A stretch of DNA of 63,289 nt, counting the filler, from Perkinsus olseni (taxonomy: Eukaryota), in NCBI GenBank assembly GCA_013115125.1. It is 23 parts of 23 records of this genome, joined end to end, with 100 filler letters (N's around TTAATTAATTAA, not from the genome) between each part and the next. Parts side by side here need not be neighbours in the genome. Positions count along the whole stretch, not along the records: positions 49,810 to 52,430 come from JABANN010001529.1; 22 more parts are not named here. One strand, 5' to 3'. Below are positions 1 to 60,578 of this stretch, in pieces. The notes beneath the pieces are model-generated. The model was not told the origin of the DNA. It made no database searches and was given only the letters and a program-made list of their open reading frames with translations. The translations under genes were made by a program, and so were the position numbers. Within the stretch, counting starts at the first letter, position 1; each line of letters opens with the position of its first letter.

Positions 1-1592
1 AGGGTGTCAAGAGACCTTGAATGGTAGAGTCAGTGGTGGCATACGCAGTGGAGGGCATAGAGTCCTCGGTCGAGTTGGAGCCAGTGGTAAGGCAGTTGGA
101 AGCGGCCTAATCGGTCTGGGAGGCCGTGTCTCGGCGCGTGATCAATAGCGAACTACCGTTGAGAGAGCAAGGTGGTCAGCCCTGCGGTACCGCTTGCAGT
201 GGAACTTGTTCGAGTCAAAGCGATGTTGAGAGTCGGCCAGTCGACCAAACCTTTTGCACCTCTCGTCCTTGCGAATGATCTGGTCAGGGCTGGCTTTACA
301 GCGAGCCGCAACATGCCCAGGTTTGCCACAGCAAAGGCAAGAGTCCTCCGCTAGGCCGAGCTCAGCTGCTGCGGCTATGCATAGTGCTCTAACGTTGGGG
401 TCGTCATCGACGTTACGGCCCTTGTTCTTGTCACTCTTGGGAACTGACTTGGTGAGTGAGTTGATGTCGGGGAGGTCATCGATGACGGCCAGTAGAGTGT
501 CTTTGAAGGTGTCGAAATCCATCTTATTGAGCGGATCAGTCAACGAGGCGGCAAAAATGGCCTTGGGACCCTTTTAAGACGCCGGATGATGGAAGAGTCC
601 TGAGCTGCTTCATCGGGGACGACCGACTGCTTGACATGCCACAGTTTCTCGAACCGGGTGCAGTAGTCGAGGGTGGACTCGGATGGCTCTTGTGATAGGG
701 CGTCGAGGGAGTTCTCCAGAGACCTAAACTCAAGGTTTGTGCTGTACCGTTTGTCCATGACAGTCCATACCGCAGAGATGCCGTTGTCAATAACAGCATC
801 ACGTGAGACTTTGTTGCGGATGTTGGACTTCAACGGCTCGGTGATAAAATGTAGGGCAACCTCCGCAGCGACGTCATTTGGAAGTGAATGACGATGACGT
901 AGGAGGTCGCAGAGCGCGACGCGCCAAGGGAAATAGGCACCGGTAGGGTTGCTGGAGAAGAGGAAGTGTTTGGGCACCGTATCACCGACGATGGACTTGA
1001 CGGTTCTCCTGACGACATCGCAGGATGAGACGACACCAGTGACGTTGTTGTGGTTGGTACCGTTGGAGGCAGTAGCTGAGACGTTGGTCGATGGTGTCGT
1101 AGCGCCAGGAGTAGGGACCGCAGATGTTGATCCCCGATACGACGAATGGCTCGAGGTGATCGGATGGGCAGAGACGTAGCGCTCATTGGACACGGCGGTG
1201 GAGATGGCTTTACGCAGATCGAGGCGTCCGACTAGGACTTTACCACCGTCGAGGTCAGCAGCAGCACAAGTATAGCCCAACGTATCACCGGGGTGAGCCA
1301 GCATGAGTCCTCCCCACCAGCAGAGTCTGGGTAGACCAGTTCTTCGGTCAACCAGGCGTAGGAATTCTGCCAGAGGTCACAGAGCTCAGGGCCGTTGTGG
1401 ACTGCGTGACAGTCCGCTTGGAAGAGCGCGTTGTCCCGGAGCGTCTCCCGTAGTGTCCCACCGAAGGGAGTGAGGACTTGTGAATATTGATTGTCGGTCT
1501 CAGTGTGAATCTGCACCTCTAGGGCGAGCATGTTGACAATGAGAGCTCTTCTCTCATAGTTGTCGCCATAGTTGTTAGGAGTTCACGCTCAT
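1..1592 (-). pseudogene. Frameshifted LTR-retrotransposon gag (capsid-like region plus CCHC zinc knuckles)
   Basis: ORFs 1232-1531, 540-1304 and 142-543 join into one Gag-like protein through single-base shifts in short homopolymers. It has the gag motif 'LSQEPSESTLDYCTRFEKL', an intact knuckle CLCCGKPGHVAARC, and degenerate knuckles (CKRFGR..., CKRYRRADHLA). Confidence 0.8.
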
Positions 1593-6770: not shown

Positions 6771-8207
6771 GAGGAGCATTAACGAAGGAGCCTCGGCCTA
6801 GTGGCCCTTCTTGCAACTTCCCAGCACCGCAGTTATCCCCACTGCAGCGAAGATAGTATCTAAACCACAAGCACCCAGAACCCTAGAGTTCACCGGCCCG
6901 GTGATAGTCGGCCCGGGGACCGGGTCCTGGTCCCCGGGGGACCAGGACCCACAAGCTACAAGAAGCCACCTGACTCGCTCCTCAGCAAGGACTCCACAAG
7001 ACGCCAGGTCTCCATCAGCGAATCTGGACCTGACACAGATCACGAGTCCACGACGACCACGACGACGACATCCATCACATGCAAGTAGATCGCGGTACAT
7101 CGCTGACTGGCCTGAGCGATGACGATGTTGCACTTGGTCATGCCGCTGCTGACGACGGGCCGTCGTCGGCAGCGATAAGGGCAACTCCCCTCGGGGTCAT
7201 ATTGCCCGTGGCACCTGTAGGGCCGTCGTCGACGGCCCTATACACCAAGAACCCCCAAGGCCTTCTACACACGAGACCTCCAAGGCAACTGGGTCACTCC
7301 ACTACGGAAGCGGCTGAGGCACAAGCAACGCCGTTGCCGTCCGTCGCCGTTGCCGGGCCGTCGGCCCGACTACAGGCAGATCGGGCAGCGTGATCGACTC
7401 ACTTGGCTCGATCGGAAATTGTCGAGCTCCTCAGAGTCTACCGCAAGCAGGCACTCATGAATTGACAGGAAGACGGCCAACTATGAAGACTGTGGAGAAT
7501 CTCCACAATCCACTCGAATCCACTCCAGGATCGCCCATCTCCACTGGAGATGAGCGATTGGAGCGAAGCTGCGAGGGACGATTACTATACTAACTCTCAA
7601 TGGCATTGAGTCAATGCCGCGCTAGTAGCGCGGCGCTACCGATGCATGAGAACCAACTACTTCCAATCCTCTTGTATTGAGTTGAGTGAGCTGAACGAAA
7701 CACTATCAAAAAAATCTGTAAGGAACAGATAACACCTAGTAAAGAAAGCCGAAGGAGAGCCGCACTACACATTAGCTGAAGCAAGTTCAAGACAACCGAA
7801 CCTCTACACCTTCAGAATGACAGTGAGAAATATGCAAAGCTCAGATTCTGAGCCTCAGAAAGATTGAGGGTGAACAAGATCTATATCATTTTTCTAAGGA
7901 GAGTGTGGCGTGCGATGGCTCAGTTCTGTTCTCGCACGCCAGATATTTCATTGTGTGAAACGGTCAAGCTGAACTAAGCTCGACGCTAGTAGCTTTCACC
8001 GTTATCTGACCGAATCAGCGTGTGATTGATCGCTACTAGTGAGTCGCAGTATTGACCGTTCTGAATGCCCTTCTTCTTTTTACTCTCTCTTTCTTCGATC
8101 CTCTCTTGGATCTACTCTCTCTGATCGTCAGCTCCCCCTGGTCGTCCGCTCCGTAATATCTGATCTGCTATCTGTACCTCTTCTATCTCCTGTGCGTCGT
8201 GTTCAAC

Positions 8208-11394: not shown

Positions 11395-13042
11395 TCACAC
11401 TTGACATGGTTCGGGTGTCTCCAGTAGGAATGGATGGACAGCAGCCGTCCTGGCCGATAGGCGATCGTCTGGGTCGAGTGCCAAGAGCGAGGCAAGGAAG
11501 CTCAGGGCATGCCTGACGGTACGGCACTCGACCTGTTCAGCAGAGAGCCTCGGCCCTACCGCCAGCGACCGAGGGGTATCCCGTGTTGCTTGGTGTCGTC
11601 GAGCAGGAGGGGCAAGTCTGAGACCTGCCGAAGCAGCGGTGACGATGATGAGGAGTAGCAGTAGCTGGGTGTCAGTACCACTTCTCTCTGCCTCTGGGCT
11701 ATCTTACAGGGGTCCTTGCCTGACACGGCGAACAGCCCTCCCTGAGGGTAAGCCACGAATCCTCCTTCGCGATGGCGCGTGGAGGACCGGCGGCCATGAC
11801 CATCACTTGGCTCGAGGTAGGCCCGACAGGGGTACGATCTAGCGAAGCAGCACTGGACCATTGCATGCCTCCTAGCCTTTCCGTACAGCCACAGCGGGGC
11901 CATCGTGGCCCACTCCAGTATCATCGCCCCCAAGGCCCAGGTGTCCACCTTCCACCCGTCTGCTGAGGTCCCCTTGGTGGCGTTCAGGGCCTCAGGGGGC
12001 ATGTACCTAGTAGGAGGGGGAGGGGATAGTCGGCGGGAGGGCATCATCTCACTGACTCCAGTGTGGCAGCGGCCTCGAACAACGCCTTCTCCCGTCCAGG
12101 CCTGACCGCTGAGCCGAGGTCGATTAGCTTGACCGCAGAGTGTGACGAGGCAGCGTCCAGCATGACATTATCGGGCTTGATGTCACCGTGGATATAACCG
12201 CAGTCCGCTAGCTCCAACAGACCCTCTGAGAAAGTATCCAAAGATCACCCATGCATTCTACGGGTGAGGTTATCCCTCCCTTGCTACCCAGGATCTGCCG
12301 TACGACATCCTGCACGAATACTCGGCCGAAATCGCCCCTGTCCGCTATGACCCGATGGAAGAGGGGAGTTGGCCTCACACAGTAGATCCGCTTCCCTCCG
12401 ACGAACTCCCCTTGGAGGGTCGTAAAGGCCCGGCCGATCGGCACTCCCGGGCACAGCTCAAGCACCATCCAGAGGGCCCGCTTGCGCTCGAGGACTTCTA
12501 TCAACCCACACACCCGACTAGGGCCACCGTTGCCCCGCCCCCTCTCGAGGGCCCGAAGGACGGCTATCTCCCTATATGCCGAACCGAAGTCGGCCTGTAC
12601 CTTCGCTGCTTGCCGCTCGCTGACCAGGTTGAGGTGGAGACCAGCGACGGTCTTATCGACTCGTTTGAGCGCTACTGATGCGGCAGATGCCCGGCAGACC
12701 CCTCGATAGACGGTAGCACAGCCTCCCCTGATAGGTGGATAGTGGGAAGCCTTGAGACAGGCGGTGGACGTCCTACCGGCCGAGTTCGTCCACCAAGCTG
12801 TACCCTGGTGGGCCGGGATTGATGCTCCCGCGAGAGCTCCGACTTCGACGCTCCCGACCGCCAGCAGCGGTGGAGGCGACGACCATCTCGTCCGGGGGGA
12901 GGGGCATAGGTCTGGCTTCAACCTGATCACTATTGAGTGCCGGGGCGTATTGATAACGAAGCAAGACAACGCGGTCGAGGGTAGCGCACTTCACGCGATC
13001 CATACTCTCTCCCCGGTCATCCAGCCTCTCCCTCTCAAACAT
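11395..13042 (-). CDS. Serine/threonine protein kinase (multi-exon; N-terminal exons probably extend toward 13900)
   Basis: LGR|GGCATVY glycine loop across an intron, VALK, alphaC E (YREIAVL), IHGDIKPDN, IDLGSA, YMPPE, DTWALG and LLALDPDDRLSARTAAVHPFL. Stop TGA at 11395-11397. Confidence 0.93.
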
Positions 13043-14030
13043 CCGTCGCCACCACCATAGGTGATATTTGGTGTGGCATAAGTCGGCCGAGGGGGACTGC
13101 GGCGCTTGAGAAGAGAGGCAGATCTCTTGTCGATGTCAGTGGGGCTCGGCCATCCCCCGGCATCCTGGCAGCCAGCAGGGAACAGTACCTCCTGCAGTCT
13201 TACCACCTGTTGAGCATTCATCCAAAGACTGAAGGACCCCATCCAATTCGACACAACTCGAGTCATCCCAAGGAGAAGTGGGAGAAACGTGGTACTAGTA
13301 GTAGTGGTTCTATCATACATATCAGATACGGCCGTAGCCTACAGCTGCCTCGGCGGACTCCTGCGTGTGAGGGTCTGACAACAACGCCAATGGGAGCTGG
13401 ACTCAGCAGGGGTAAGTGTTACCATCAAGGGCCTGCTTGAGCCTCCGACGGTGCTTAGCTGTCTTGAAGTGGGCTACCAGTGCTATATCGGTTATGAAGT
13501 ACCTGAGGAGGCAAGGGTATCTCTCACAGGCCCGAATCCGTGATGTTGATGGTCACTTGGCACAGGAGACGCAGTAGTGCTGCCCTCGACCAGGCAAGTC
13601 CTCATCAACTGGCATGTTAGAGAACTTCTCAGGAGCCTTCAAGTCGTCATGAATCTGATAGAAAAACCGTAAAATGGCTTCGATGATGACTATCTCCACC
13701 CAACCTGATCGATGTCCCTCGTATGCCTCTTTGCCTTCACAATACCTCCTCTGGTATTATTAGCGTTCTTCTTACGACGTTTCTGAATAGCCATTCCCTC
13801 AACCCACTGACTGTGAAGCAGGAGGAGGACTGCAGACCGCACCCAAAAGGATGCCCCCGATAAACACAACCCCCCCAGGAATCCGAAACAGCCCGGAGGA
13901 GATGGTGGTCAATGACGTTGCAGCAGATCGNNNNNNNNNNNNNNNNNNNNNNNNNNNNNNNNNNNNNNNNNNNNTTAATTAATTAANNNNNNNNNNNNNN
14001 NNNNNNNNNNNNNNNNNNNNNNNNNNNNNN

Positions 14031-16708
14031 TGACTTGGCCGTCTGGGACGTGGCCTGAGTAGACTGCGTGGAACTTGTCGACGTCTAACTTGAGCAAGTA
14101 TCCCAGAACCGACTTCTTGACGTCTTCATCTCCATCCGCAACCAACCAGTTGCAGAAGGATTTAACGGGGTCGTTGCCGAAGCCGTGACCTGTGAAGACG
14201 TGAGAGCCAAACTCGTAGCCAAGTCGTGCTTCTTCTTTGCTCCTTCCGCCGTAGTAGAGGTCGTCGACGTACTTGAGTAATAGCATCTTCGTGGGGATAG
14301 CTGGTCCACGTCGTATATACTCCACGCCAGTCGCAGAGGGCATTAATAATGCCTGCTCGATCTGCGCGTTGGAGAGTAGTCGTGGTGACGAGCTGGTGGC
14401 ACGAGTCTGACGTTGTACAGACAGGGTAGACGTAAGCAGTTGTTCCAGCTCCAATACCACGTCGTGACTGCTAGCTTCCAGCATACAGGGTGCATTGTTG
14501 CTGCCGAAGGCGATGCTCGACCACAAGACAGTGTAGTTCCCGATGCACGTGTAGCTGGAGTAGCCGACGTCATAGAGAGAAGCCTTCATCTGGCAAAACG
14601 CCTTAGAGACGTCAGCGGAGATGAAGTAAGGGAAACTTCTCAGCTGGAGTAGTACTCCTTGTAAGTCGTTCTGGGTCTTCCCGCCACGTCTGGTAAACTT
14701 GTTCAACGTGCGGAAGTCCAGGACGATGCGGCAGGGCGTCGTAGGGTGACTATCTCGGAATACCATGTGTGAGGGCGTGTAGTGGTAGGGTTTGATGACG
14801 ACCGTACCATCCAAAGCCGTATCACGTGTCATGGCATCCCATGCCGCCTGGCACTCGTCGAAGGTTGGGTGGTCGAGGTTGCCGTTGACGTAGTTGTCCT
14901 TGACGATTGCACAGAAGCCTCGAGTAGTGTAGACTTGTAGTGCCGCTTCGAATGCTTGTCGTTGTTCTGGGGAAAGTCGTCTTGTCGAGGCAGCACCACG
15001 ATGAGCAGCATTCTTGAAGTTATTGGGTGGACGTTCCTCCCCTAACCAAGGTAGCCGTACACATGCTCGCCCTAGGGGTGTTGTAGCATCCCACATCCAA
15101 TGACGTTGTAGCACATCCCATGGAGGAAGGTTGTCGTCGGAGTCGTGGTCCACGTCTTCTTTGTCATTGTTCTCGTCATGGTGGGGGGTAGCAGATTCCA
15201 CGTTGGAGGAGGTTTCCGTCGGATCAGTAGACATGTAGTGGACGTAGTAGTTGCTGCTAGTAGGATCTTTTCCCGATTGGTTACAGTCGGCTTGGCCAAC
15301 AAACAAGTCGTCCGGGTAGATCCTAGTGGTGGGGAAGAGCGCGTTGTAGAGCTCGACGTCAGATAGTCCACTATGGGAGCCTTGGTGTAGGAATAGTCGA
15401 CGTACATGGTTGATGGTGTACGTGACCGTGATGTCTTCTTGATCCTTCTCTAACAGTTTGTCGTAGGTGGAGACGTTGTCGTTGAACCGNNNNNNNNNNN
15501 NNNNNNNNNNNNNNNNNNNNNNNNNNNNNNNNNNNNNNNNNNNNNNNNNNNNNNNNNNNNNNNNNNNNNNNNNNNNNNNNNNNNNNNNAGCCGAGTAGGG
15601 GCTGAAGTCGTGGTCGTCGTTGGTGGTGACGTGCATACCATGTGGGCTCACTCGTATAGTTGTACGTAGTTTACCCAAGGTGGGGCAACCTAGTAGTATC
15701 GGTACCGACAAGTCGTCAGACACTACGATGAATTCGTCGTGGACCGTGATGCGGTTGGTAGAGACCTTGAGCATGACGGTGCCATCGACGTGCAGGGTAC
15801 CTCCATCGGCCACCGAGATATGCCGAGGTGTATTGGTGTAGACGTCTACATGCGGAGCTAGTCGTTGAAGTGCTTGCCTAGTAATGAGGGACACCTCTGC
15901 TCCTGTATCAAACAGGGCTGGTATGACGTTGTCCTCTATGCAGACGTTACCAATCACCATGACCATAGGCTTAGTGGTCCTTGACGTGTCTCGGTCAGAC
16001 GATGAAGAAGTCGTACAGACTCGTTGTTGAGGATGTTCCTGTAAACGATCATTGTCAATGATCACCTGAACCCTAGCCGTTGATCTCGGAGTCGATTGTC
16101 TTTTGCCAGTCGTTGGAGAGGATGTCGGCGTCTTAGACGTACATACGTAAGCCAAGTGACCAGGGTTGTTGCAGCGGTGGCAGACCAGTTTGTCGCTCTT
16201 GATCTTGCACGTCGCAGCTTGATGTTGAGGGTTGCCACAGATTCGACAACGTGTAGAGAGGTCGGCCGGTTCTGGTTGTTCACAATCTTTAGCAGAGTGT
16301 CCACGTTTGAGACACCGGTAGCACTTCAACCCAGATAGATCACGACCCATATTGACGTGATGTTGCCGAACCTCGTTGTCGTCCGTGGTGTAGCCACCAG
16401 AATCATCAACCGGGTTGACAGACTCTCGCCTCGGGTAGGGAGGACGTTGTTGCCAAGGCCGACGGCTGCGATAACCACTGTCGTCACTTCGTCTGCCGTA
16501 GCTGCCTCTAGAGTCGTCTCTGGTCTTCTTGTCGGAGGGTTTGGTGTTGTTGTCGGCCTCATTGACGTTGGTCATACGCCTATGCTGACGTAGTACGACT
16601 TCCTTGAACTCCATGTAGTCGATCTCTTTGTCGTCGAGGTAGTCATTGACACGAAGTCGTAGCTCAGCGCCCTTGAGACCGTTGTAGAGCTTCCACTTCA
16701 TCTTGTAC
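14031..16708 (-). mobile_element. LTR retrotransposon gag-pol fragment: three CCHC knuckles, aspartic protease, BEL/Pao-type reverse transcriptase
   Basis: Knuckles CYRCLKRGHSAKDC, CRICGNPQHQAATC, CHRCNNPGHLAYVC. Protease LFDTGAEVSLI...ILLG. RT motifs VRLPW, HYTPSHMVFR...TTPCRIVLD, NDLQGVLLQLR...ADVSKAFCQM, AFGSNNAP, YVDD, SVLGY. The frame is open on both sides of an N gap. Confidence 0.95.
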
Positions 16709-30997: not shown

Positions 30998-32305
30998 TTA
31001 GGCAGCGGCTTGTCTACCATCCTCTAGTAAAGCAGTCTGCAAATCATGATCATGGTCCTCGATCTTTTCCTTTACTAGGAAGAACAAGGGTATCCTCATT
31101 AACAAAGCTACCGTGTAGATATGCGCAGTAATACCGAAAGCATAGCGGTAGTCGTGACCATCACATAACCACCCACCGAGGGCGGCACTCCCAGCCCACG
31201 ACGCTGCTGTGATGCTCTCCACTGCGTTCCATCGCCCTCGCTGCTTCGAAACGACGTAGTCCATTATTAGGGAACGATCCAACGGATACACTGCATTCTG
31301 AAATCCTCCTCGGATGAAGTAGACCACCAGTAGGAGGGGGAGCGAGTAGAGGTAGGAGAGGCCATAGAGGCAGGCCGTGCCGATACCCGCGAACAGGAAA
31401 CACGCCTTGACACGACCCAGAATCTTCGAAGTGCGATTGCAAAGATACGTTGCAATTCCAATAACAATGGAATAGGAACCGACTAGGATCTGCAGCTGCA
31501 TCGGGGAGAAGCCGTAGTCGTTCATGAAGAAGAGGGGAAAATATCGAACAGTCATGCCAGCACCAATCGACGTTATCACATCATTCAAAGATATAACATA
31601 CGGCACCAACCAACCATATCCAGCACGCAGTCGAGAAACCTTCTCGGAGTCGGTCAGGATCTTCACCTCCACGGTTTCACCCACTCCAGCGTCCCCACCC
31701 TTGATACTAATATTAGTATCCGAATGCTCATGATGCTCAACGTCTCGCCATAAGGTGTTAATCCAATTCGTCGGGAATTCTACCAGACCGACGATGACGA
31801 TTATCCGGTGGAGGATAGGGAGTTGCCACTCGTTGCCCAGGACGTGGACCAGAATCACACCCAAGAAGGGCCCAGTACCACCGGCCACGTTCTGCAGAAT
31901 CGACACTGTACTCATAGCATCAGCTCGATGACCATGTGGTAGGGAGTCAGCAAAGAGGGAATACGACGCAGAGGACTGTATCACCCATTGTGCTCCGTAC
32001 AGGAAGAATACAACATACAACAGGACCAAATTATCCGTAACGACACCGTATCTGAACAGTAGCAGTCCACAGATGTCCACGCCAGTGCTCTTCCAAACGC
32101 TTACGATACGGATCGATACGACGAAGTCAAACACGGGGCACTTACAAATATAGTACGAGTGCTGCTGTGAGCACCATGGACCCTATCTTCAGTAGCCGCG
32201 CACGACTGTAGTGGTCGATTAACCAACCAGCCGGCATGGCTAGAACCAAGGAGGCGGCACCGAATATCGAAGCCACGAGTCCCACCTCCGTATTCCTTTC
32301 ACCTG
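30998..32305 (-). CDS. Major facilitator superfamily transporter (5' end unresolved)
   Basis: Many transmembrane segments; MFS motif-A-like GWLIDHYSRAR and SKILGRVK; SLFADSLPHGHRADA, SLIMDYVVSKQRGRWNA, ALGGWLCDGHDYR. Confidence 0.9.
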
Positions 32306-38889: not shown

Positions 38890-39876
38890 GATGTAGATCA
38901 TGTGCTAGTCTCGAGTATGGAGCTATTTTATGAAAGTGGTGTACCTAATATGGTACTGAGTGATCAAGGTTCGGTGTTCACAGCGCTAAGGTATCAACAG
39001 TTCCTGACCGAGCATTCTATCCTTCATGCCTATACATTTCCGTACGAGGAAACCCGGCGAGGATGGTTGGAACGGCCCCATAAAGAGATTGGGGTCATGC
39101 TACGTTGTCTCCAAGTTGAGTCCGGGAAGAAGTTGGAGGAGCTGAGCGTTAATGAGTTGCGGATGTGGGTATGCAGATTATGCTTTGTTCATAACAATAT
39201 GGTTTTTGATGAGGATGATAACGATAAGGAGTTAACCCCTTGGTTATGTAATAGAATTACTAGGGGTCTAGATGATGTTCTCTCTCCGCTGGAAGATGAT
39301 GATATTGAGAAGATTCGTGGTTGGTTGTCTTCTGGACTGTGTTTGGACGATTGTTATGACGTGTTAGATAGTGCTAGTAAGGAGTTACGTGAGGCCTGGT
39401 CGACTTCCATCGAACACATGAAGGAGCTCTGGTTGGAGAGAAGATCTGAAGTTAGGAAGCGCCTTGCTCGTTATCGTAAAAGTGACAATTTGAAGATCGG
39501 CGATATTGTGTGGAAGCGTAATATGCCGGTTAAGAAGTTGGGTGAGCTATTTTCCGGTCCTTTCGAAGTCTGTGGGCGAGAAGGCTCGACTATCAGGCTC
39601 AAGGATGTTATGAGTGGTGCTAAGACTAGTTGTCCCATCGAGATGCTTAAGAAGGGTAGACGTGGCCGAAAACGACCAGTAAAGGAATCCTTCATGAAGG
39701 ACGTGGCTGTGCAGGCAGTCGATGAAGACCCGAACAAAGTTATCAACCCTGATGATGTGACACGGCTTGCGGCAACACTGGCTAACGAGTCTGGGGTGAT
39801 GACGCGTTCTAAAAAGCGGCTGCTGGAGACGGTGTCGAAGCTTGCTGATAGTAACAAGGTCGCTCGTACCAAGTAA
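38890..39876 (+). mobile_element. LTR retrotransposon integrase core and C-terminus
   Basis: VLSDQGSVF (second Asp), RRGWLERPHKEI (Glu), and a GPY/F module LKIGDIVW....KKLGELFSGPFEV. Confidence 0.9.
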
Positions 39877-40152: not shown

Positions 40153-41525
40153 AGTCGGTGAAACGGTTACTCCTGTACCTCTTCTACCCTACCACTGGTT
40201 GCGTTACTGGGTTCATTTCTGCACACACTGTTCACGCCAAAACTCAACGTGACTCCGCAGTCACACATACTGCGGACACCGAGGATAGCATTCTTACTGC
40301 GGCCTCCTTACGGACCCATCAGCTAACGTCACCCGCAAGGATTCGGATACCCCACGACTGGACGTTCCCAAGCCGAACTTTTCCACCAACGAGGCGGAAA
40401 TATAATTATAGTAGGCTCCCGTATCCAGCAAGGCTGGCAGTACCTTGTCCTTCTCAAGAGGAATGTTTACCATAGGACCAGCCAGCTTTTCCTTAGCTTT
40501 AGACACAGCACAAGTATCTGGGTCGTTGTCCGCAATGTTCAACAGCCGTTGGGTAATCTCCACAGTCTTAGAAGGGTCGACAGCTTCAGAGTTCACCTGG
40601 GGAACACCGACCGACACAGGACTCGAGGACACAGGAGAAGCTTGGGATGTGGTAACCGCTGGTCGTTGTTCGGGGTCTCGAGGCTTAGGACGATCTTCGC
40701 TGGGGTCGATGTGAGCGAACTTACAACTTTTTCCGAAACGACACTTCCCAGAACGACGCCAACTGTAACAGATCTTCTTACTAGGCGCTCTTCTAGAGGC
40801 ATCACCGCCAGATTCGGAAACTGAGTTGACCTTTCCCGAACCTCCACGGGAACCATCTTTAGGTCCAGTAATCATACGCTCGCGCATAACCAAGGTAGTG
40901 GCCAATTGGCTATAAGATAGACGACCACCAGCATTGGCCATACGATCCACAGCAACCTCCTTCACATCTTGTCGAAGGGAACTGAGCAGAGCGGCCACTA
41001 ATCTTCCATTATCCAAGACCACACCATGAGAAGCAAGATCCGCTACAGTGGTCTCAAAGCGATTAAGGAAAGAGGCAGTCGATTCTGACCTTGATTGCCG
41101 TAGGGCTAAGAGCTCCTGCTCAGACTTCCACGAACCAGTATCACCATCAAGGCCAGCCGTTAACATCTCAAGCTCCTTCATAAGACGGTCATATTCCTCC
41201 TTCCACTTTCGAGCCGGGGCATTCGGGGGCGGAGCCCTCGGCCTAAGTCGTAATTGAACATTATCTGCAATGTTCCTCGTCAAAGCATAATACCTTAGCA
41301 CATAGTCGTTATAACCACGAGAGTCGCATAAGGCGTAGAACTTCCGACGCCACGATGGGAAACTACGAGTGTCAGTGAAACCAGAGTAACATGTACCGTC
41401 AATGATCTTAACGGACTCTACCTCTTTCCGAGATTCTCGGATCGATTTAGCGTCAATATCATCATCCAATATGACAACATCATCTGTAGCAGTAGGGCCA
41501 GTAACATTCCCAGTAGGCAGATCGC
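40153..41525 (-). mobile_element. LTR retrotransposon gag-protease with a CCCH zinc finger; protease disrupted
   Basis: Gag motif LRQSRSESTASFLNRFE; finger CYSWRRSGKCRFGKSCKFAH; protease ALLDTGAYYNYIS...VTLADGS, then a frameshift to the C-terminal NAILGVRSMCDCGVTLSF. Confidence 0.88.
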
Positions 41526-49709: not shown

Positions 49710-49809
49710 NNNNNNNNNNNNNNNNNNNNNNNNNNNNNNNNNNNNNNNNNNNNTTAATTAATTAANNNNNNNNNNNNNNNNNNNNNNNNNNNNNNNNNNN
49801 NNNNNNNNN

Positions 49810-52430
49810 GCTTCCCAAACTTCCCCAACATAGGACGCCAGCGGTAAACCTTCGCACCCTCGATGAGATCTCTGCTAGCATGTCTCTTCACACGGCTCAT
49901 CAACTTCTCACGAACATCACGCCGTCGTAACCACCACACGTCAGCTAGCTCCTTTAATGCCACTATCCGCCCTTCACCTAATCGGTCCCGATACAACTGT
50001 GCAAGTTCCTCAGACCACCAAGTAGGAGGCTCGAGACCATCAAAGATCGCCTTCCTGATATCATCAGCCTCTTTCTTAGCATTAACGTCACCAATCATCC
50101 TGCTATGTCCTCGACAAACCAGGAAAGGACACAGTGGCGACCCATCAACATAGGGAGTCATATTGACGATAGTGACAGCTCTGCTCAGGATACGAAGGAA
50201 CTCGTCTTCAGTAGGAAGCTTGTGGTCAGCAGCCAGATCCCACAGACAACCACGAATGACAGCGTGCACGTCTCTATGGGCGCGCTCACCCCATCCTCTC
50301 AACTCTTCTCCACGAGGTGGGGCAGCTACCACCGTCGCGTCCCACTCGTCCGCAACCGACATGACCTCAGGCACATTGAGACCCTGGTCTACCATTAACA
50401 CCCTCGGAGGTCCTTCATCAGCAAGCAATCGAAGTAAGGCCCTGGAGGCACTTTCTCCGCCTTTATTATAGGCCACCTCAGACTTCACGAACTTCGACGA
50501 GTGACAGGACAGAGTGAAAACGTAAAGCTTCTTGGGATCACCACCTTCGTCCTTAGAGAGCTGATAGGGGCCCATAACATCATAGTAGGCGATGGCGAAG
50601 GGTTCGTACTTCACCGAGCATCCAGGAGGCCTTGCAGAGTGCGTCCGGCGTCTATTATCAGCAATTCTCCTCGCTTGGCAGCCTTCGCATTGCTGGTTCA
50701 GCATTCTCACCGTTCGATCGAGCCTCTTCCAATAGTAGCTTCTCCATACCCATCTGGTGAGAGTAGTACGACCCGGGTGTCCCCGATGCTTATCATGCAC
50801 CCATTTAGTAACAAGGGACTGCAGGTCTCGACGGACTTCCGGAACCACTATTTGATGGCAAACGCACGAGTCACGGCCGGAATCATCAAGAGAAACGCTG
50901 CCAGTGCGATAGATATGGCCATCATGCAGCTCATAACCGTCGATAACACCATCAGAGACCTTGAGCTTCTTGAAGATACCCTGAAGATCAGGGTCGGAAG
51001 ATTGAGCGTTCAACAACAGACGGCGAAGATCTTCATCTGGTTCAAGCGAGGGGACGTCCTTATGCAAGTCTACCACCGCATTCACCACCGCATCGGTAGA
51101 GGCCAGAGCTTCATCTAGTTCATCCACAACCTCATCACAGCCTGAAGTTGCGGTGACCGAGAACGTGGATATAACCTTGGCCTTACTCAGAGTGGCTTCG
51201 ATATTCTTGCCGGACAACAGCATCATCTTGGCCGGACTGTCATTTGTGCCTGGGCGCGTCCCAAGATCCGCAGGATTCTCCGCCCCAGAAATGCTACCGA
51301 TGCAGATGTAGCGACGATAATAGGAAGCCATATCGCGAAGACTTCCGCGCAGCTTGGTCATACGGCGCAACTCAAACTTCGGGAGGTACTTGGCGTCGAG
51401 AGCAGGCGACCGGCGGAGCCTCCAAGCATTAAGCTGAGAGTCAGTGAGAATCCACAGCGCCTCTACATCATAACCGTCACTCACCACCACGTCAATCTCC
51501 TTAAGGATTGTGCTGAGTAGTTCGGCAGCCAAGACAAGACCACAGAGCTCTAAGCGGGCAATAGACCATGAAGGATTGAGAGTACGCTGACGTGCGACAA
51601 TCCTCCTACCACTAGAGATGGCTCTCGCGTCCGCACAGATGCAGCCTGTACCAGCAGCATCGCAGTAGATGACAATACCAGAGCGGATGTCAGTGAAGCG
51701 TGGCTGAGGAGGGAGCTTGGTGTCGAAAAGGGCACGTATACCTTGAACTACCTCGTTTGGGACATCGGCTGAGTCCCAGCTGGCAGTGCTATGGGCTGCT
51801 TGTCGAAGGAGCCATCGTTCCCTCGCTGCTGCTTCAATGTGAATACCGAGTGGGTCGAAGTACTTTCCCAGAGTCTGAAAGCAATCACGTCTGGTCCTAA
51901 GGGGGCGTTCACTAACATTAGGCAGTATCACCGAGAGAGAATCCTCTACAAGATTCCACTGATAACCGAGAACCTTCACAGGTTTAGTAGATGTCGTTAT
52001 TGTAGGCGCTATCTGAGGCTGGGAGACATTGAACTCCGGATCATATCCGAGAATAGCTTTACTTGGCTGGCACTCCATCCGATATCTCTCAGCCAGCACT
52101 TTTCTACCGAGGCTGCGACGCTCCAACAGCTTATCTGGAGACCAGCTGGTATACAGCAGGTCGTCCATATAGGCGAAGAAGGCCGCGAGAGTACTACCAT
52201 CAAGATCATTGAGTACAATGCCAGCCTCCTCCAGCACACAGGATAGTATGGCAGGGCTGCAGACCAGCCCAAAGGGCAACCGCAGACACCTGAACACCGT
52301 GTTGTTGATGCGAAAGTTAATGAACCTAGAGTCCTCTTCCGGTAAAAGTACTTGGAGAAAGGCCCTGGTGATGTCGTCCCAGCAGGTGTACGGAGCCAAT
52401 CGCCATCTCAACAGTACTTTCTGAAGTGCC
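49810..52430 (-). mobile_element. LTR retrotransposon pol fragment: BEL/Pao-type RT and RNase H, followed by integrase
   Basis: RT: LLRWR...DITRAFLQV, RLPFGLVCSPAIL, YMDD, KVLGYQW...DSL, TRR.....GKYFDPLG. RNase H: YCDAA, SIARLEL, TDSQ, ENPADLGTR. Integrase: HHCC finger, YDVMGPY, VDQG, GWGERAH. One uninterrupted ORF. Confidence 0.96.

Positions 52431-55250: not shown

Positions 55251-55323
<73 letters not shown>
55251..55323 (+). repeat. (AGT)n microsatellite
   Basis: Perfect run at the contig start. Confidence 0.97.
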
Positions 55324-55326
<3 letters not shown>

Positions 55327-55399
55327 ATGATAATGAGGGTCGGCGATTTGATAGTTACTCTCTCGGACCATCCGGCTCGACTACTCTGACTCGTCTGGG

Positions 55400-57965: not shown

Positions 57966-60578
57966 ACTAATTACAGTGTGATACAGCCTGTGCATTCATG
58001 TTTGGCAGAGTGAAGTGATGAACCTCCCAGTTTAGTTTCTCCAGTGTCTCCTTATATGCCTGACGAATAGAGATGCCGCATAAAAAATCTCCTACGCCCG
58101 CTTACAGTATATATTTCCGGGTCACTGTGCTGGACCCAGTCTTGGAACACTCCAACTTTGATTATACGATTCTTCCGCGGAGGCGCTGCCAGCGCATGTA
58201 GATGCACTGGGGGCCTGCCTCTCGATCCATACAGGTAGTCATAGACATGAGTTCCTGATGAGAAGAGACGGCTGCGATGCATGTAAACGTCTCTGGGTCG
58301 TCTGCCTGACTAGGAGTCCTACAGTATAATCATTCATCGAGATGAGTCATAACAATTTCTTGGCAGTCTTTCGCCGGCGGCAAGTCTACTGACACTAGGG
58401 CCGCCGTCGAAATGCACGACGACTGAGGAGTATGTTTTCATCATACCTTGGTGCTCGGTCTTGCCTATAACTCTGAGGACGTGCGCTGCATCAGCCACTG
58501 TTGCTGCAATGGGGCCACAGTGAGTGACAGTCGAAACAGGAGTCCCAGTAGTCTCAAAATTGACCTGTGCCAGACGAGAAGAATACCAGTGGCCTATGGC
58601 TGTCAGATAAGTTTACCCGGCCAAAGGTGGGCGCGAGACCAACCACTCCAGACCATGATGATGGTATTCGGATAGATCCACCACCATCCAGCCCGATAGC
58701 GAACGGCACCTGAAGCAAAAGGTAACCAAAACCCAAAACTAGGGCTGCTGAATTAGCCAGAGCACGTCTGTAATCGGCAGAGCTGATGAGGCCGACTCAT
58801 TCCATATCGCCCGGACTGCATACCCGGACCGGGTAACCCGGTACTGGAGATTCCGATGAGACCGGAACAAACTTAAGAGGATCAGATGATGGTCTATAGA
58901 CGCCGCATACGCCGCCGTCACTTACAATGCCGGAAGCCACGATTGTGGCACTACCGCTGGAGCTACCCCCAGAATAGCGTGATACGTCGAAAGCGTTGAC
59001 AGGGCCTTCATACCATTCTAAGGACAATTAGGAGCTCCGTTGTACTGTAGACATTCATTCACAGGTTAATTTCATCATCATCATCATCATCATCATCAGC
59101 GGTGTATGTAAATTTACTGTTATATCCAAGAGGCGAGGTCCCATACTCATGCATAGTTGCCGTTCCCAGGAGAATCGCTCCGGCATCGAGAAGAGCTTGA
59201 ACCACAGGGTCGTTAACATCCTGAATAATGAGTGGGCAATGGGCAATGGGCAATGGGCAATGGGCNNNNNNNNNNNNNNNNNNNNNNNNNNNNNNNNNNN
59301 NNNNNNNNNNNNNNNNNNNNNNNNNNNNNNNNNNNNNNNNNNNNNNNNNNNNNNNNNNNNNNNNCTGGGCAATGGGCAATGGGCAATGGGCAATGGGCCG
59401 CAGACGACACTGTGACTGGCAGCATCGCCGAGAAACTCGTTGGTCCAGCGATACTTCGAGGATCTACATACCGAGCCGATGGTGCCTGGGAGAGGGTTCT
59501 TCGGGTTCGTACCGTGCAGGTTAGGGAGGCCTTTAACCTGAAAAGGCTCGTCCGATAGCAGATAGGCCAAGATGCGAGTGGGTACTTACTCGTAGGTCAC
59601 CCTTGACCACGAATGGAACTCCGTCAAGCATGGAACGAGACTTGCTTTCGGCAAACCTTTTCGAACTCGCTTGCGCCATAATAATGATCTCATTGTGAGG
59701 TAGCATGCACTCTATAGCCTTGAGAGTGGGGTTCATCTCCGAGATTGCCCGAAGGGCGCGCTGAATGACGGATGAATGCACAGTTCAGAAGTACCAGGCA
59801 GCTCCACTAACCTTGATGACATTTGTAGGCATCTGTCTCTTTGAAATATATGCTCTATGATAGTCTTCAACTGTTCGGTAGGGATGCCGACTACCCTCCA
59901 ACTCATCGAAGAACTGCGTCGCATTCTGTTGAAGAACAACGAGGAGCTCCCAATCGAGAACGCACGTTTCCAGCCGCTCTAAAGTTCCAAGCGAGGAGCG
60001 CATTCGGGTATCGCCTCTAACCTCTGTCTAAGCGGATAACTTGATGAGCCATCTCAGATTGCGCCTCATGATAATCATCACGGGCAGGCGAGAATCTCTA
60101 GCAGAGAGTCTCAATGGGTCTCTCCAGACTCACCTGCTCTAGCCTTTTCTGCTCGTCTTGAGCATGCCTCTGAGCAGCCTCGAAACTATCGTCATCTGGA
60201 AGGAAAATGCACTAGGTAGCAGCGACTCGAGTCGACAAGAACTGAGTGAGTTCGATGTTTGCAATTGCGGTTGAATGCATCTCAGCCTGACAAACTCACC
60301 AAGGCGGTGAATGGGCATCGTCACGGATGGCGTCCGGTGATCGACCTGCAATGCCAGCTGCCGGAGTACCTCTGGCTGAATAGAAACACTAATGAGCGAG
60401 CTCGATAGATGGGGTGGCTGGACACGGCGATTTGCGCTTCGGTTCGACCTCACAGTCGATTACGGCAGAAATTTTGACGCGGGCGGTTTCTAGGCAGCGA
60501 ATTGCCTTAGGCAATTTGCCTATCGCCGAATTCTTACATGGTTCGCATTGAGGAGGAGCCTTCTGAATACACGGCCTC
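57966..60578 (-). CDS. Amidase signature enzyme (fatty-acid amide hydrolase-like), multi-exon, both ends truncated
   Basis: LDGVPFVVK, LLDAGAILLGTATMHEYG, NAFD..RYSGGSSSGSA, AIGLDGGGSIRIPSSWSGVVGL.PTFGR, HCGPIAATVAD. The Lys-Ser-Ser triad is intact. Confidence 0.93.
59233..59398 (+). repeat. Intronic (TGGGCAA)n heptamer repeat spanning a scaffold gap
   Basis: The heptamer repeats on both sides of the 99-N gap. Confidence 0.9.

Follow-up and report, generated by a model that had tools for sequence, protein, structure and literature searches.

A pol fragment on one of 23 chained contigs

The stretch of DNA analysed here (the window; 63,289 bases from a Perkinsus olseni assembly) consists of 23 separate contigs that were chained artificially in order of falling length, from 2717 to 2611 bp, through 22 joints of the form N44-TTAATTAATTAA-N44 (for example, at 49710-49809). 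It holds 46 runs of N; beyond the linkers, two 99-N gaps lie inside contigs (15490-15588 and 59266-59364). The window strings together short pieces of a fragmented assembly and is not one genomic region; because these contigs are unlinked, no element in it serves as genomic context for another. The subject of this work fills exactly one whole contig, 49810-52430 (2621 bp), which carries on its minus strand an internal fragment of a retrotransposon pol gene encoding reverse transcriptase (RT), RNase H (RH) and integrase (IN). The family of elements to which it belongs is called the target family below.

The contig is crossed by a single minus-strand frame of 873 codons (49811-52429), open at both ends; by our own arithmetic, the chance that a random frame reaches this length is about 6e-19. 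The N-terminal part of the RT falls beyond the contig end, and the palm and fingers are matched by RVT_1 over residues 19-157 (51959-52375, minus strand; 40.2 bits for a Pfam gathering cut-off of 29.6), with DITRAF at residues 19-24, LPFG at 51-54 and YMDD at 87-90 (52160-52171). The next match is to PF05380, 'Pao retrotransposon peptidase', which marks BEL/Pao in Pfam, over residues 179-317 (51479-51895, minus strand; 40.4 bits, or 42.3 bits on the half protein, for a cut-off of 22.3). Despite its peptidase name, this match spans the interval between RVT_1 and the RNase H motifs, which begin at residue 256, that is, the RT thumb/connection into RNase H. The RNase H region, whose bounds are approximate (51230-51667, minus strand), is defined by the motifs CDAAG (256-260), ARLEL (291-295), TDSQ (329-332) and NPAD (385-388) and by the RT-RH profile comparison given below. 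The protein has no Pfam match to RT_RNaseH or RT_RNaseH_2 (PF17917 and PF17919), which the Gypsy references reach at 92-121 bits.

The remainder of the frame encodes the integrase. Its N-terminal HHCC zinc-binding domain (50666-50830, minus strand; H545, H551, C581 and C584) is matched by Integrase_H2C2 over residues 534-588 (38.1 bits, cut-off 25.5). The catalytic core (50285-50581, minus strand), with D617, D681 and E715, was placed from conserved columns and an AlphaFold2 (AF2) model, the glutamate lying in the motif WGERAH (713-718). The C-terminal region (49811-50284, minus strand), a helical linker followed by the start of the C-terminal domain, runs until the frame leaves the contig, and it aligns over its full length solely with integrases of Perkinsus and of the metagenomic group X introduced below. 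Searched alone in Pfam, the integrase half gives only zinc-finger families, without rve, DUF5641 or SH3_Tf2-1 even at E ≤ 10; since the integrase tail leaves the contig, the negative for SH3_Tf2-1 (GPY/F-type) is incomplete. An NCBIfam search returned no match, and phmmer against the PDB gave 0 matches for the whole open reading frame (ORF) and two at chance level for the integrase half (E 1.7 and 2.4).

Two statements of an initial annotation of this DNA are borne out by these data. It had described one ORF with BEL/Pao motifs and an integrase devoid of the usual BEL signatures: the quoted motifs are present in an open frame of 873 codons with PF05380 above its cut-off, and the BEL-associated DUF5641 tail gives no match. 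The contig carries RT, RNase H and integrase in that order, with YMDD, the HHCC finger and the D,D,E triad conserved, an integrase fold, and an RT/RNase H of BEL type.

Affinities of the RT/RNase H and integrase halves

BEL/Pao is the one large superfamily among retrotransposons with long terminal repeats (LTRs) that is treated as animal-only. A profile of the target family (alignment A3) was searched against 1.84 billion representative proteins, giving 8381 matches at E ≤ 1e-3 and 30 at E ≤ 1e-30. Pfam was run on 34 of the 150 listed best matches, and PF05380 was present in 33 of them. Fifteen are classical BEL proteins, one of them from a pseudoscorpion, with PF05380 scores of 98.7-316.7 bits; 11 of the 15 carry DUF1759 and/or DUF5641, and 10 carry DUF5641 (E ≤ 1e-4). 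A further 18 combine a weak PF05380 match (29-64 bits) with a strong H2C2 finger and usually rve, and none of them carries DUF1759 or DUF5641. These 18 proteins are other Perkinsus families and metagenome proteins of ~1200 amino acids, the latter referred to as group X; all named members are from Perkinsus. The remaining protein, P. olseni P0025, has no PF05380 at the threshold used and likewise no DUF1759. The target protein, at 40.4 bits, scores far below the animal BEL range of the 15 classical-type matches.

Profile-profile comparison (hhalign) of the RT-RH region gave the target family scores of 367 to group X, 400 to other Perkinsus families, 370 to animal BEL and only 75 to Gypsy. Group X itself scores 504 to BEL versus 157 to Gypsy, and BEL to Gypsy 102. 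In tblastn searches of the window, an Anopheles BEL protein matches 51221-52426 (E 8.5e-19), and the Gypsy protein P0336 gives no match at 1e-4. From these comparisons the RT/RNase H is, as judged by sequence, BEL/Pao-like.

For the integrase, the corresponding target-family scores are 274 to group X, 241 to other Perkinsus, 131 to animal BEL (E 2e-17 over 254 columns) and 62 to Gypsy (E 1e-7), the BEL score being about double that to Gypsy. The other Perkinsus families score 227 to BEL and 223 to Gypsy, and BEL to Gypsy only 137. The integrase of this lineage is thus central, closer to BEL and to Gypsy than those two are to each other, and group X proteins align to it over its full length. 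H545, H551, C581, C584, D617, D681 and E715 are kept in all five groups aligned. The residues before the catalytic glutamate follow the BEL pattern (a P..SP-like start, a glycine, a hydrophobic/aromatic pair, then E-R) and not the Gypsy motif HPQTDGQTER, and a histidine three residues past the glutamate is peculiar to Perkinsus and group X. A first AF2 model of the integrase half, built from 7 close sequences, had a mean predicted local distance difference test score (pLDDT) of 42.7 and was not used; the model from 26 sequences reached 76.2. Its top Foldseek matches are prototype foamy virus (PFV) integrase (E 1.9e-11), Ty3 (7q5b; 8.5e-9) and lentiviral integrases, and by sequence the lineage profile matches Ty3 Gag-Pol (1.9e-33) and PFV integrase (2e-29). 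Since no BEL integrase occurs among the listed sequence or fold matches, the fold confirms an integrase and cannot tell BEL from Gypsy; the integrase is very divergent but real.

Trees of the two regions were obtained from quick IQ-TREE searches (LG+C20), each with 73 of 81 chosen rows. The RT-RH tree leaves out P0002, P0003 and P0006 (gapped gene models), P0372, P0044 and the Gypsy proteins P0337, P0346 and P0414; the IN tree leaves out P0001, P0047 and P0372 (too short), P0007 and P0043 (no finger match) and P0337, P0346 and P0414 (beyond profile reach). The Gypsy references derive from eight IMG/VR loci (L001-L008) found with a short Gypsy integrase motif; 2 of the 8 are intact with the full chromoviral Pfam set, and a profile of these two retrieved 120 chromovirus/Tf2-like polyproteins. 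A repeat Gypsy search in IMG/VR returned only the two contigs already found. It is worth noting that chromoviral Gypsy elements also occur as stand-alone 5-6 kb contigs in viral and metagenome collections, and that the frames of 6 of the 8 IMG/VR loci are broken. A Copia integrase motif gave 0 loci in IMG/VR and then one locus with broken frames; with no Copia outgroup, the trees are unrooted.

In the RT-RH tree, Gypsy stands on a stem of 3.53 (support 100), and animal BEL forms a clade (98) that is sister to Perkinsus P0050 and P0069 (89). The target family branches off beside the Gypsy stem (support 34). It lies outside animal BEL but on BEL's side of that long branch, and its mean path is 4.39 to BEL and 6.09 to Gypsy. 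The IN tree gathers the 16 Gypsy rows in a clade (100) that contains no Perkinsus or group X row, and places animal BEL (99) on a long stem (1.54) as sister to Perkinsus P0050 (90). All other Perkinsus and X families lie in a bush with little resolution, the target family again being near the Gypsy stem. The RT-RH tree shows the same neighbourhood as the IN tree, so the two halves do not conflict; since the target and the Gypsy branches are both long, they may attract each other. Divergence among the Perkinsus families is deep, with mean RT-RH paths of 3.6-4.0.

Based on the above data, we propose, with a probability of roughly three in four, that the contig is an internal pol piece of a multi-copy Perkinsus (P. 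olseni-like) retrotransposon family, which would belong to a diversified BEL/Pao-related lineage outside the sampled animal BEL clade. To date its members come from Perkinsus species and from environmental relatives, and the lineage is best described as BEL-related and outside the sampled animal clade in trees that are unrooted. The initial annotation had suggested a diversified and possibly undescribed lineage beside BEL, and the several Perkinsus families, the metagenome relatives and the outcome of our literature search (below) agree with that part of it.

Several observations pull in the other direction. The contig carries no LTR, primer-binding site (PBS), gag or protease, so that the LTR nature of the target family is read from its relatives. 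The trees are quick and unrooted, have only Shimodaira-Hasegawa-like approximate likelihood ratio (SH-aLRT) supports, and possess a weak backbone (supports 2-62). Their Gypsy panel is chromovirus/Tf2-like only, and Pfam evidence exists for 15 of the 27 'animal BEL' rows and 12 of the 19 X rows; the other 12 and 7 rows were classed from their alignment pattern and then joined the same clades. Mean paths in the IN tree run shorter from the target family to Gypsy (5.14) than to animal BEL (5.81); an approximately unbiased (AU) test on the integrase does not reject a grouping of target family and Gypsy (p-AU 0.622), and the tree that holds them together is 3.91 log-likelihood units better than the free quick search. 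The AU result and the shorter Gypsy path count against a simple assignment of the integrase to BEL. Group X integrases score 240 to Gypsy and 220 to BEL in hhalign. The Perkinsus profile scores the Gypsy H2C2 finger at ~24-39 bits (25 best of 122 listed), and its whole-IN match to most animal BEL, 8-39 bits, is no higher. Lastly, the run that supplies the spliced contig described in the next section (X7) is labelled RNA by a tool's guess.

Among the alternatives, horizontal transfer between animal hosts and perkinsozoans, in either direction, would make these elements a displaced branch of animal BEL/Pao instead of an old lineage of protists. Perkinsus, a parasite of oysters and clams, lives inside molluscs, and the position of P0050 and P0069 as sisters of animal BEL (89-90), with the other families outside, could be read in this way; it would also fit an origin of animal BEL from within a protist grade, or long-branch attraction. 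Against transfer, the animal BEL clade (98-99) holds no Perkinsus sequence, even though its animal rows were those scoring best to the Perkinsus profile, and the deep divergence of the Perkinsus families, across three species and an environmental relative, rules out a recent event though not an ancient one. We therefore regard this origin as unlikely.

A second alternative is the chimera that the initial annotation had put forward as one of two readings, in which a BEL-type RT/RNase H recombined with a Ty3/Gypsy integrase, either in the target family or in an ancestor of the whole lineage. The missing DUF5641 and rve matches, the integrase path and AU results, the near equidistance of group X integrases from BEL and Gypsy and a GPF tripeptide in the tail of another window integrase (at 38890, see below) would all suit it, as would an H2C2 finger that scores as well on Gypsy as on BEL. 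This finger had been taken as a Gypsy-style context, yet the Integrase_H2C2 cut-off is also passed by 5 of 6 classical BEL matches; similarly, the glutamate motif that had been called unusual aligns column by column with the BEL form P..SP..GG-aromatic-E-R rather than with the Gypsy motif. The target family does share with Ty3/Gypsy chromoviruses (Metaviridae) its domain order, a similar Integrase_H2C2 finger and the integrase fold, Ty3 (7q5b) being a top PDB match, but it is devoid of RT_RNaseH, RT_RNaseH_2, SH3_Tf2-1, a chromodomain and HPQTDGQTER, its RT-RH profile score to Gypsy is only 75, and Gypsy forms its own clade in both trees. The target integrase profile scores 131 to BEL versus 62 to Gypsy, the Gypsy IN clade (100) excludes every Perkinsus and X row, and SH3_Tf2-1 is found neither on the target integrase half (E ≤ 10) nor on the 38890 integrase (E ≤ 0.01). 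The initial annotation would have been supported by separate trees with the RT in or beside BEL and the integrase outside it; both trees place the target family at the same spot, next to the Gypsy stem. Because both halves share the same nearest relatives, a Gypsy chimera is not supported, and we consider it quite unlikely: the integrase probably belongs to the lineage and is not shown to be imported. Its Gypsy-like look can be ascribed to features common to all three groups, together with animal BEL integrases being more derived (long stem, DUF5641 tail).

Eight short segments of the RT/RNase H region missing from a probable RNA contig

If the target family is a BEL-related LTR element as proposed, it would copy itself like other LTR retrotransposons. 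The element would be transcribed and translated as Gag-Pol, which would be cleaved by its own protease; its RNA would be reverse-transcribed in a particle and then integrated by the DDE integrase, an enzyme of the lineage's own that may keep features lost or changed in animal BEL integrases. The RNA of the target family would in addition be spliced at eight short GT..AG segments within RT/RNase H.

Four runs were aligned to contig 49810-52430. Run X7 (organism A; RNA by the tool's guess) holds one contig of 3524 nt, at depth 152 and with no mismatch, that skips eight segments of 44-63 nt. All lie on the minus strand and each reads GT..AG on the coding strand, two of them after shifting the cut by 1-2 nt. 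In coding order, these are 52288-52349 (62 nt, residues 27-48; GT..AG with the cut 2 nt to the right), 52135-52197 (63 nt, residues 78-99, including YMDD), 52019-52062 (44 nt, residues 123-137), 51875-51931 (57 nt, residues 167-185), 51704-51751 (48 nt, residues 227-242), 51550-51609 (60 nt, residues 274-294, including the RNase H ARLE), 51434-51484 (51 nt, residues 316-332, including the RNase H TDSQ) and 51141-51185 (45 nt, residues 415-430; GT..AG with the cut 1 nt to the right). In DNA run X1, contigs read unchanged through 5 of the 8 segments. The segments are coding sequence and do not represent insertions. The metatranscriptome run X19 gave three identical contigs that cover 49828-50701 only; of a raw-read RNA run (X21), the 4% that was sampled yielded 0 reads for this contig, which carries no weight.

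Gene models of relatives lack some of the same segments. The model of P0002 (P. olseni, 90% identical) is without residues 167-242 and 274-293, that of P0003 (P. marinus, 79%) without 314-332, that of P0018 (61%) without 167-185, 274-300 and 314-332, and that of P0021 without 315-332. The fourth and sixth segments are thus absent from P0002 and P0018 as well, and the seventh from P0003, P0018 and P0021. Seen through these gapped models, the sites resemble introns in further copies and species as well. A spliced molecule of the target family exists, as one contig of a probable RNA run. The ORF is uninterrupted in DNA, as initially annotated, though not in this one probable RNA contig.

Because two of the segments have lengths not divisible by three, splicing puts the product out of frame; read on in the original frame, it meets a stop 26 codons past the first splice junction. 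Translation of spliced RNA would end there, and only unspliced RNA would encode Pol or serve as template. This qualifies the recent activity that had been suggested for the family: near-identical copies and transcripts speak for it, but the sole probable RNA contig across RT/RNase H is spliced and cannot encode the RT.

The public gene models treat such sequences as host genes, and a domesticated or decaying pol-derived gene with true introns would account for the eight GT..AG segments removed in the probable RNA contig and for their absence from relatives' models. However, the removed segments encode catalytic motifs and the spliced form is out of frame, so the 'exons' alone encode nothing coherent, whereas without splicing 873 codons stay open and include every catalytic residue. 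There are also several near-identical and diverged copies. We hold a domesticated gene to be a decidedly improbable explanation.

In a BEL-related element, the spliced RNA might arise incidentally, in a host whose splicing machinery recognises very short introns, or might serve to make Gag-protease in excess. The second, regulatory reading is possible but doubtful. It has parallels in single-ORF Ty1/Copia elements, where alternative splicing is reported to yield a Gag-only RNA in Arabidopsis EVD and its relatives (Oberlin et al. 2017, PMC5580714) and in barley BARE (PMC3735527). As in EVD and BARE, splicing downstream of gag in a one-frame gag-pol element would stop translation early and give an excess of structural protein. 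Unlike them, the Perkinsus family has eight short segments instead of one intron, placed within RT/RNase H and not around the protease. It also belongs to another superfamily, and the functional link is putative.

Host, relatives and wider setting of the lineage

The best protein match to the ORF is P. olseni P0001, 97% identical over 763 residues. Further relatives occur in P. olseni (79%, 49% and 39%), P. marinus ATCC 50983 (76%) and P. chesapeaki (44%), and more families of the lineage are annotated in these three species, some on scaffolds of 190, 286 and 745 kb; those of 190 and 745 kb are P. marinus ATCC 50983 scaffolds. The stretch is present in 20 public runs from 11 studies, some of which bear a second organism label. 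In DNA run X1, 14 contigs fall on it, 8 at ≥99%, 1 at 95-99% and 5 at 90-95% identity: the target family is multi-copy. Although classical BEL/Pao is an animal group in the profile issued by the international virus taxonomy committee (ICTV) and a second organism label does accompany some runs, an origin of the contig from a mollusc host or other animal is very unlikely, because relatives sit on the large P. marinus scaffolds and the P. olseni match is 97%, relatives span three Perkinsus species, every named member of the non-classical group is from Perkinsus, and a related element lies between Perkinsus-like host genes. The protist host proposed initially is thus upheld, and contamination, which had been offered as grounds for rejecting it, is countered by the P. 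marinus scaffolds and the three species.

In public records, proteins of the lineage bear the name 'hypothetical protein' or, in some cases, 'casein kinase I isoform delta'. Four P. olseni models with the latter name (P0026, P0169, P0183 and P0185) contain pol domains of the lineage and are probably fused or misnamed. Public Perkinsus models that treat elements as host genes distort gene counts and intron statistics.

Features that the contig does not reach were found in relatives. A metagenome scan for group X gave six loci; in IMG/VR, 36 pattern matches to the group gave 0 confirmed. Locus L010 has a gag-like ORF and a pol ORF (RVT_1, PF05380, H2C2 and rve) between 91-nt direct repeats at 8095-8185 and 13618-13708, 5523 nt apart; a TG..CA reading of the repeat ends is possible, and no matching target-site duplication was seen. 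L012 and L013, each a contig of 5.8 kb, also carry terminal repeats, of 107 and 123 nt, whose two copies are identical; in the three loci the repeats enclose units of 5.5-5.7 kb. L010 is flanked by intron-poor eukaryotic genes (SF3b1, RPL27A, PACRG, P4-ATPase and others). The best matches of its SF3b1 are unnamed metagenome proteins (74-82%), the best named ones being P. marinus (72%) and P. olseni (71%), followed by dinoflagellates (71%) and chromerids (68%). By its Perkinsus-like flanking genes, this related element sits in a nuclear genome, that of an alveolate close to Perkinsus sampled from the environment. A gag-like N-terminus, an upstream aspartic protease and terminal repeats of ~90-125 nt around a 5.6 kb unit are shown in relatives only.

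The long relatives P0001 and P0005 carry an RNA recognition motif, RRM_1 (residues 30-104, E 7e-9, and 162-238, E 1e-8, respectively), between the gag-like N-terminus and a DSG protease motif, where other families of the lineage have CCHC knuckles; Pfam detects neither DUF1759 nor CCHC in these two proteins. A profile that includes them matches nucleolin, PABP and other RRM structures. As the RRM comes from gene models, a fusion artefact is possible, yet the same arrangement is predicted in two species. Among LTR retrotransposons, an RRM where the nucleocapsid is expected is, to our knowledge, uncommon, as is the splicing of eight short coding segments that hold catalytic residues.

Two other contigs of the window hold fragments of the same broad group, as had been noted initially, but they are unlinked to the contig studied here. 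At 14031-16708 (minus strand), Pfam identifies gag with CCHC knuckles, an aspartic protease and an RT fragment of another Perkinsus family, with a 99-N gap inside the frame; the best local matches of 14032-16707 are P. olseni P0139 (279 bits) and P0086 (253 bits). Its retropepsin had been called Gypsy-like, but the families concerned, Asp_protease_2 and gag-asp_proteas, are also matched by classical BEL proteins. At 38890-39873 (plus strand) lies the C-terminal two thirds of an integrase from a further family of the lineage, which shows the same GW.ER.H motif around the glutamate and matches group X best (36-51 bits; P0027 50 bits, P0053 46 bits). The Gypsy-type module that had been seen in its tail reduces to the GPF tripeptide, with no SH3_Tf2-1 match at E ≤ 0.01. 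On the same contig, a gag-like frame at 40297-41523 (minus strand) has a zinc finger of CCCH rather than CCHC type, weak matches to Retrotrans_gag and Retrotran_gag_2, and the beginning of an aspartic protease. This frame and the integrase converge, so that two element fragments stand tail to tail.

According to the ICTV profile, Belpaoviridae (genus Semotivirus) are metazoan-infecting, with vertebrate, insect and nematode hosts, LTRs 0.2-1.2 kb in length and a PBS that matches tRNA-Arg or tRNA-Gly. The target family resembles them in its pol order RT-RH-IN, with a protease upstream in relatives (the DSG motif of P0001 and P0005; Pfam on 14032-16707), in an RT/RH that matches PF05380 above the gathering score and has BEL among its best database matches, and in an integrase with an HHCC finger, a DDE core and a hydrophobic/aromatic pair before the catalytic glutamate. 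In contrast to BEL/Pao, its host is a protist and it falls outside the sampled animal clade in both trees. The target has no DUF5641 tail (E ≤ 10), its relatives no DUF1759 gag, and the contig itself no gag; the CCHC knuckles are replaced by an RRM in the target family's relatives; and the LTRs of L010, L012 and L013 are ~90-125 nt long. In passages of de la Chaux and Wagner 2011, of Kojima 2025 and of the Kuafuortervirus paper (PMC11673190), no protist BEL is mentioned. We found no published description of BEL/Pao-like elements in Perkinsus or other alveolates, a search outside which Repbase entries and subscription journals lay, so that this is no proof of absence. The Troyka elements and Kuafuorterviruses offer a precedent for a deep LTR lineage long filed under a neighbouring superfamily (PMC12440569, PMC11673190). 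Troyka differs as an animal lineage with 3-bp target-site duplications and CG..CG termini.

The presence of a deep and diversified relative in Perkinsus and in an alveolate from the environment is relevant to the origin of the BEL/Pao superfamily and to the ancestral form of its integrase, and the perkinsozoan lineage offers a natural outgroup for rooting animal BEL. A more far-reaching view, which we advance tentatively and consider rather unlikely as a whole, is that in the perkinsozoan elements a non-animal stem or sister grade of Belpaoviridae has survived. BEL/Pao would in that case be older than animals, or would have crossed between alveolate parasites and animals. The DUF5641-tailed integrase of animals would be derived; the target family would have swapped its zinc-knuckle nucleocapsid for an RRM and would use conserved exitron-like splicing within RT/RNase H to set the ratio of structural to catalytic proteins.

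The other contigs of the window gave minor observations. A 278-residue frame at 543-1376 (minus strand) has a weak Retrotrans_gag match below the cut-off (E 0.0025) and may be the gag of another retroelement. Host-type genes lie on two separate contigs: an MFS transporter at 31001-32182 (minus strand; E 8e-30) and, at 11559-12990 (minus strand), two adjoining frames with weak protein-kinase matches and a frame change near 12167-12211. The contig starting at 55251 opens with a simple repeat (55251-55330) that translates as poly-Ser or poly-Thr.

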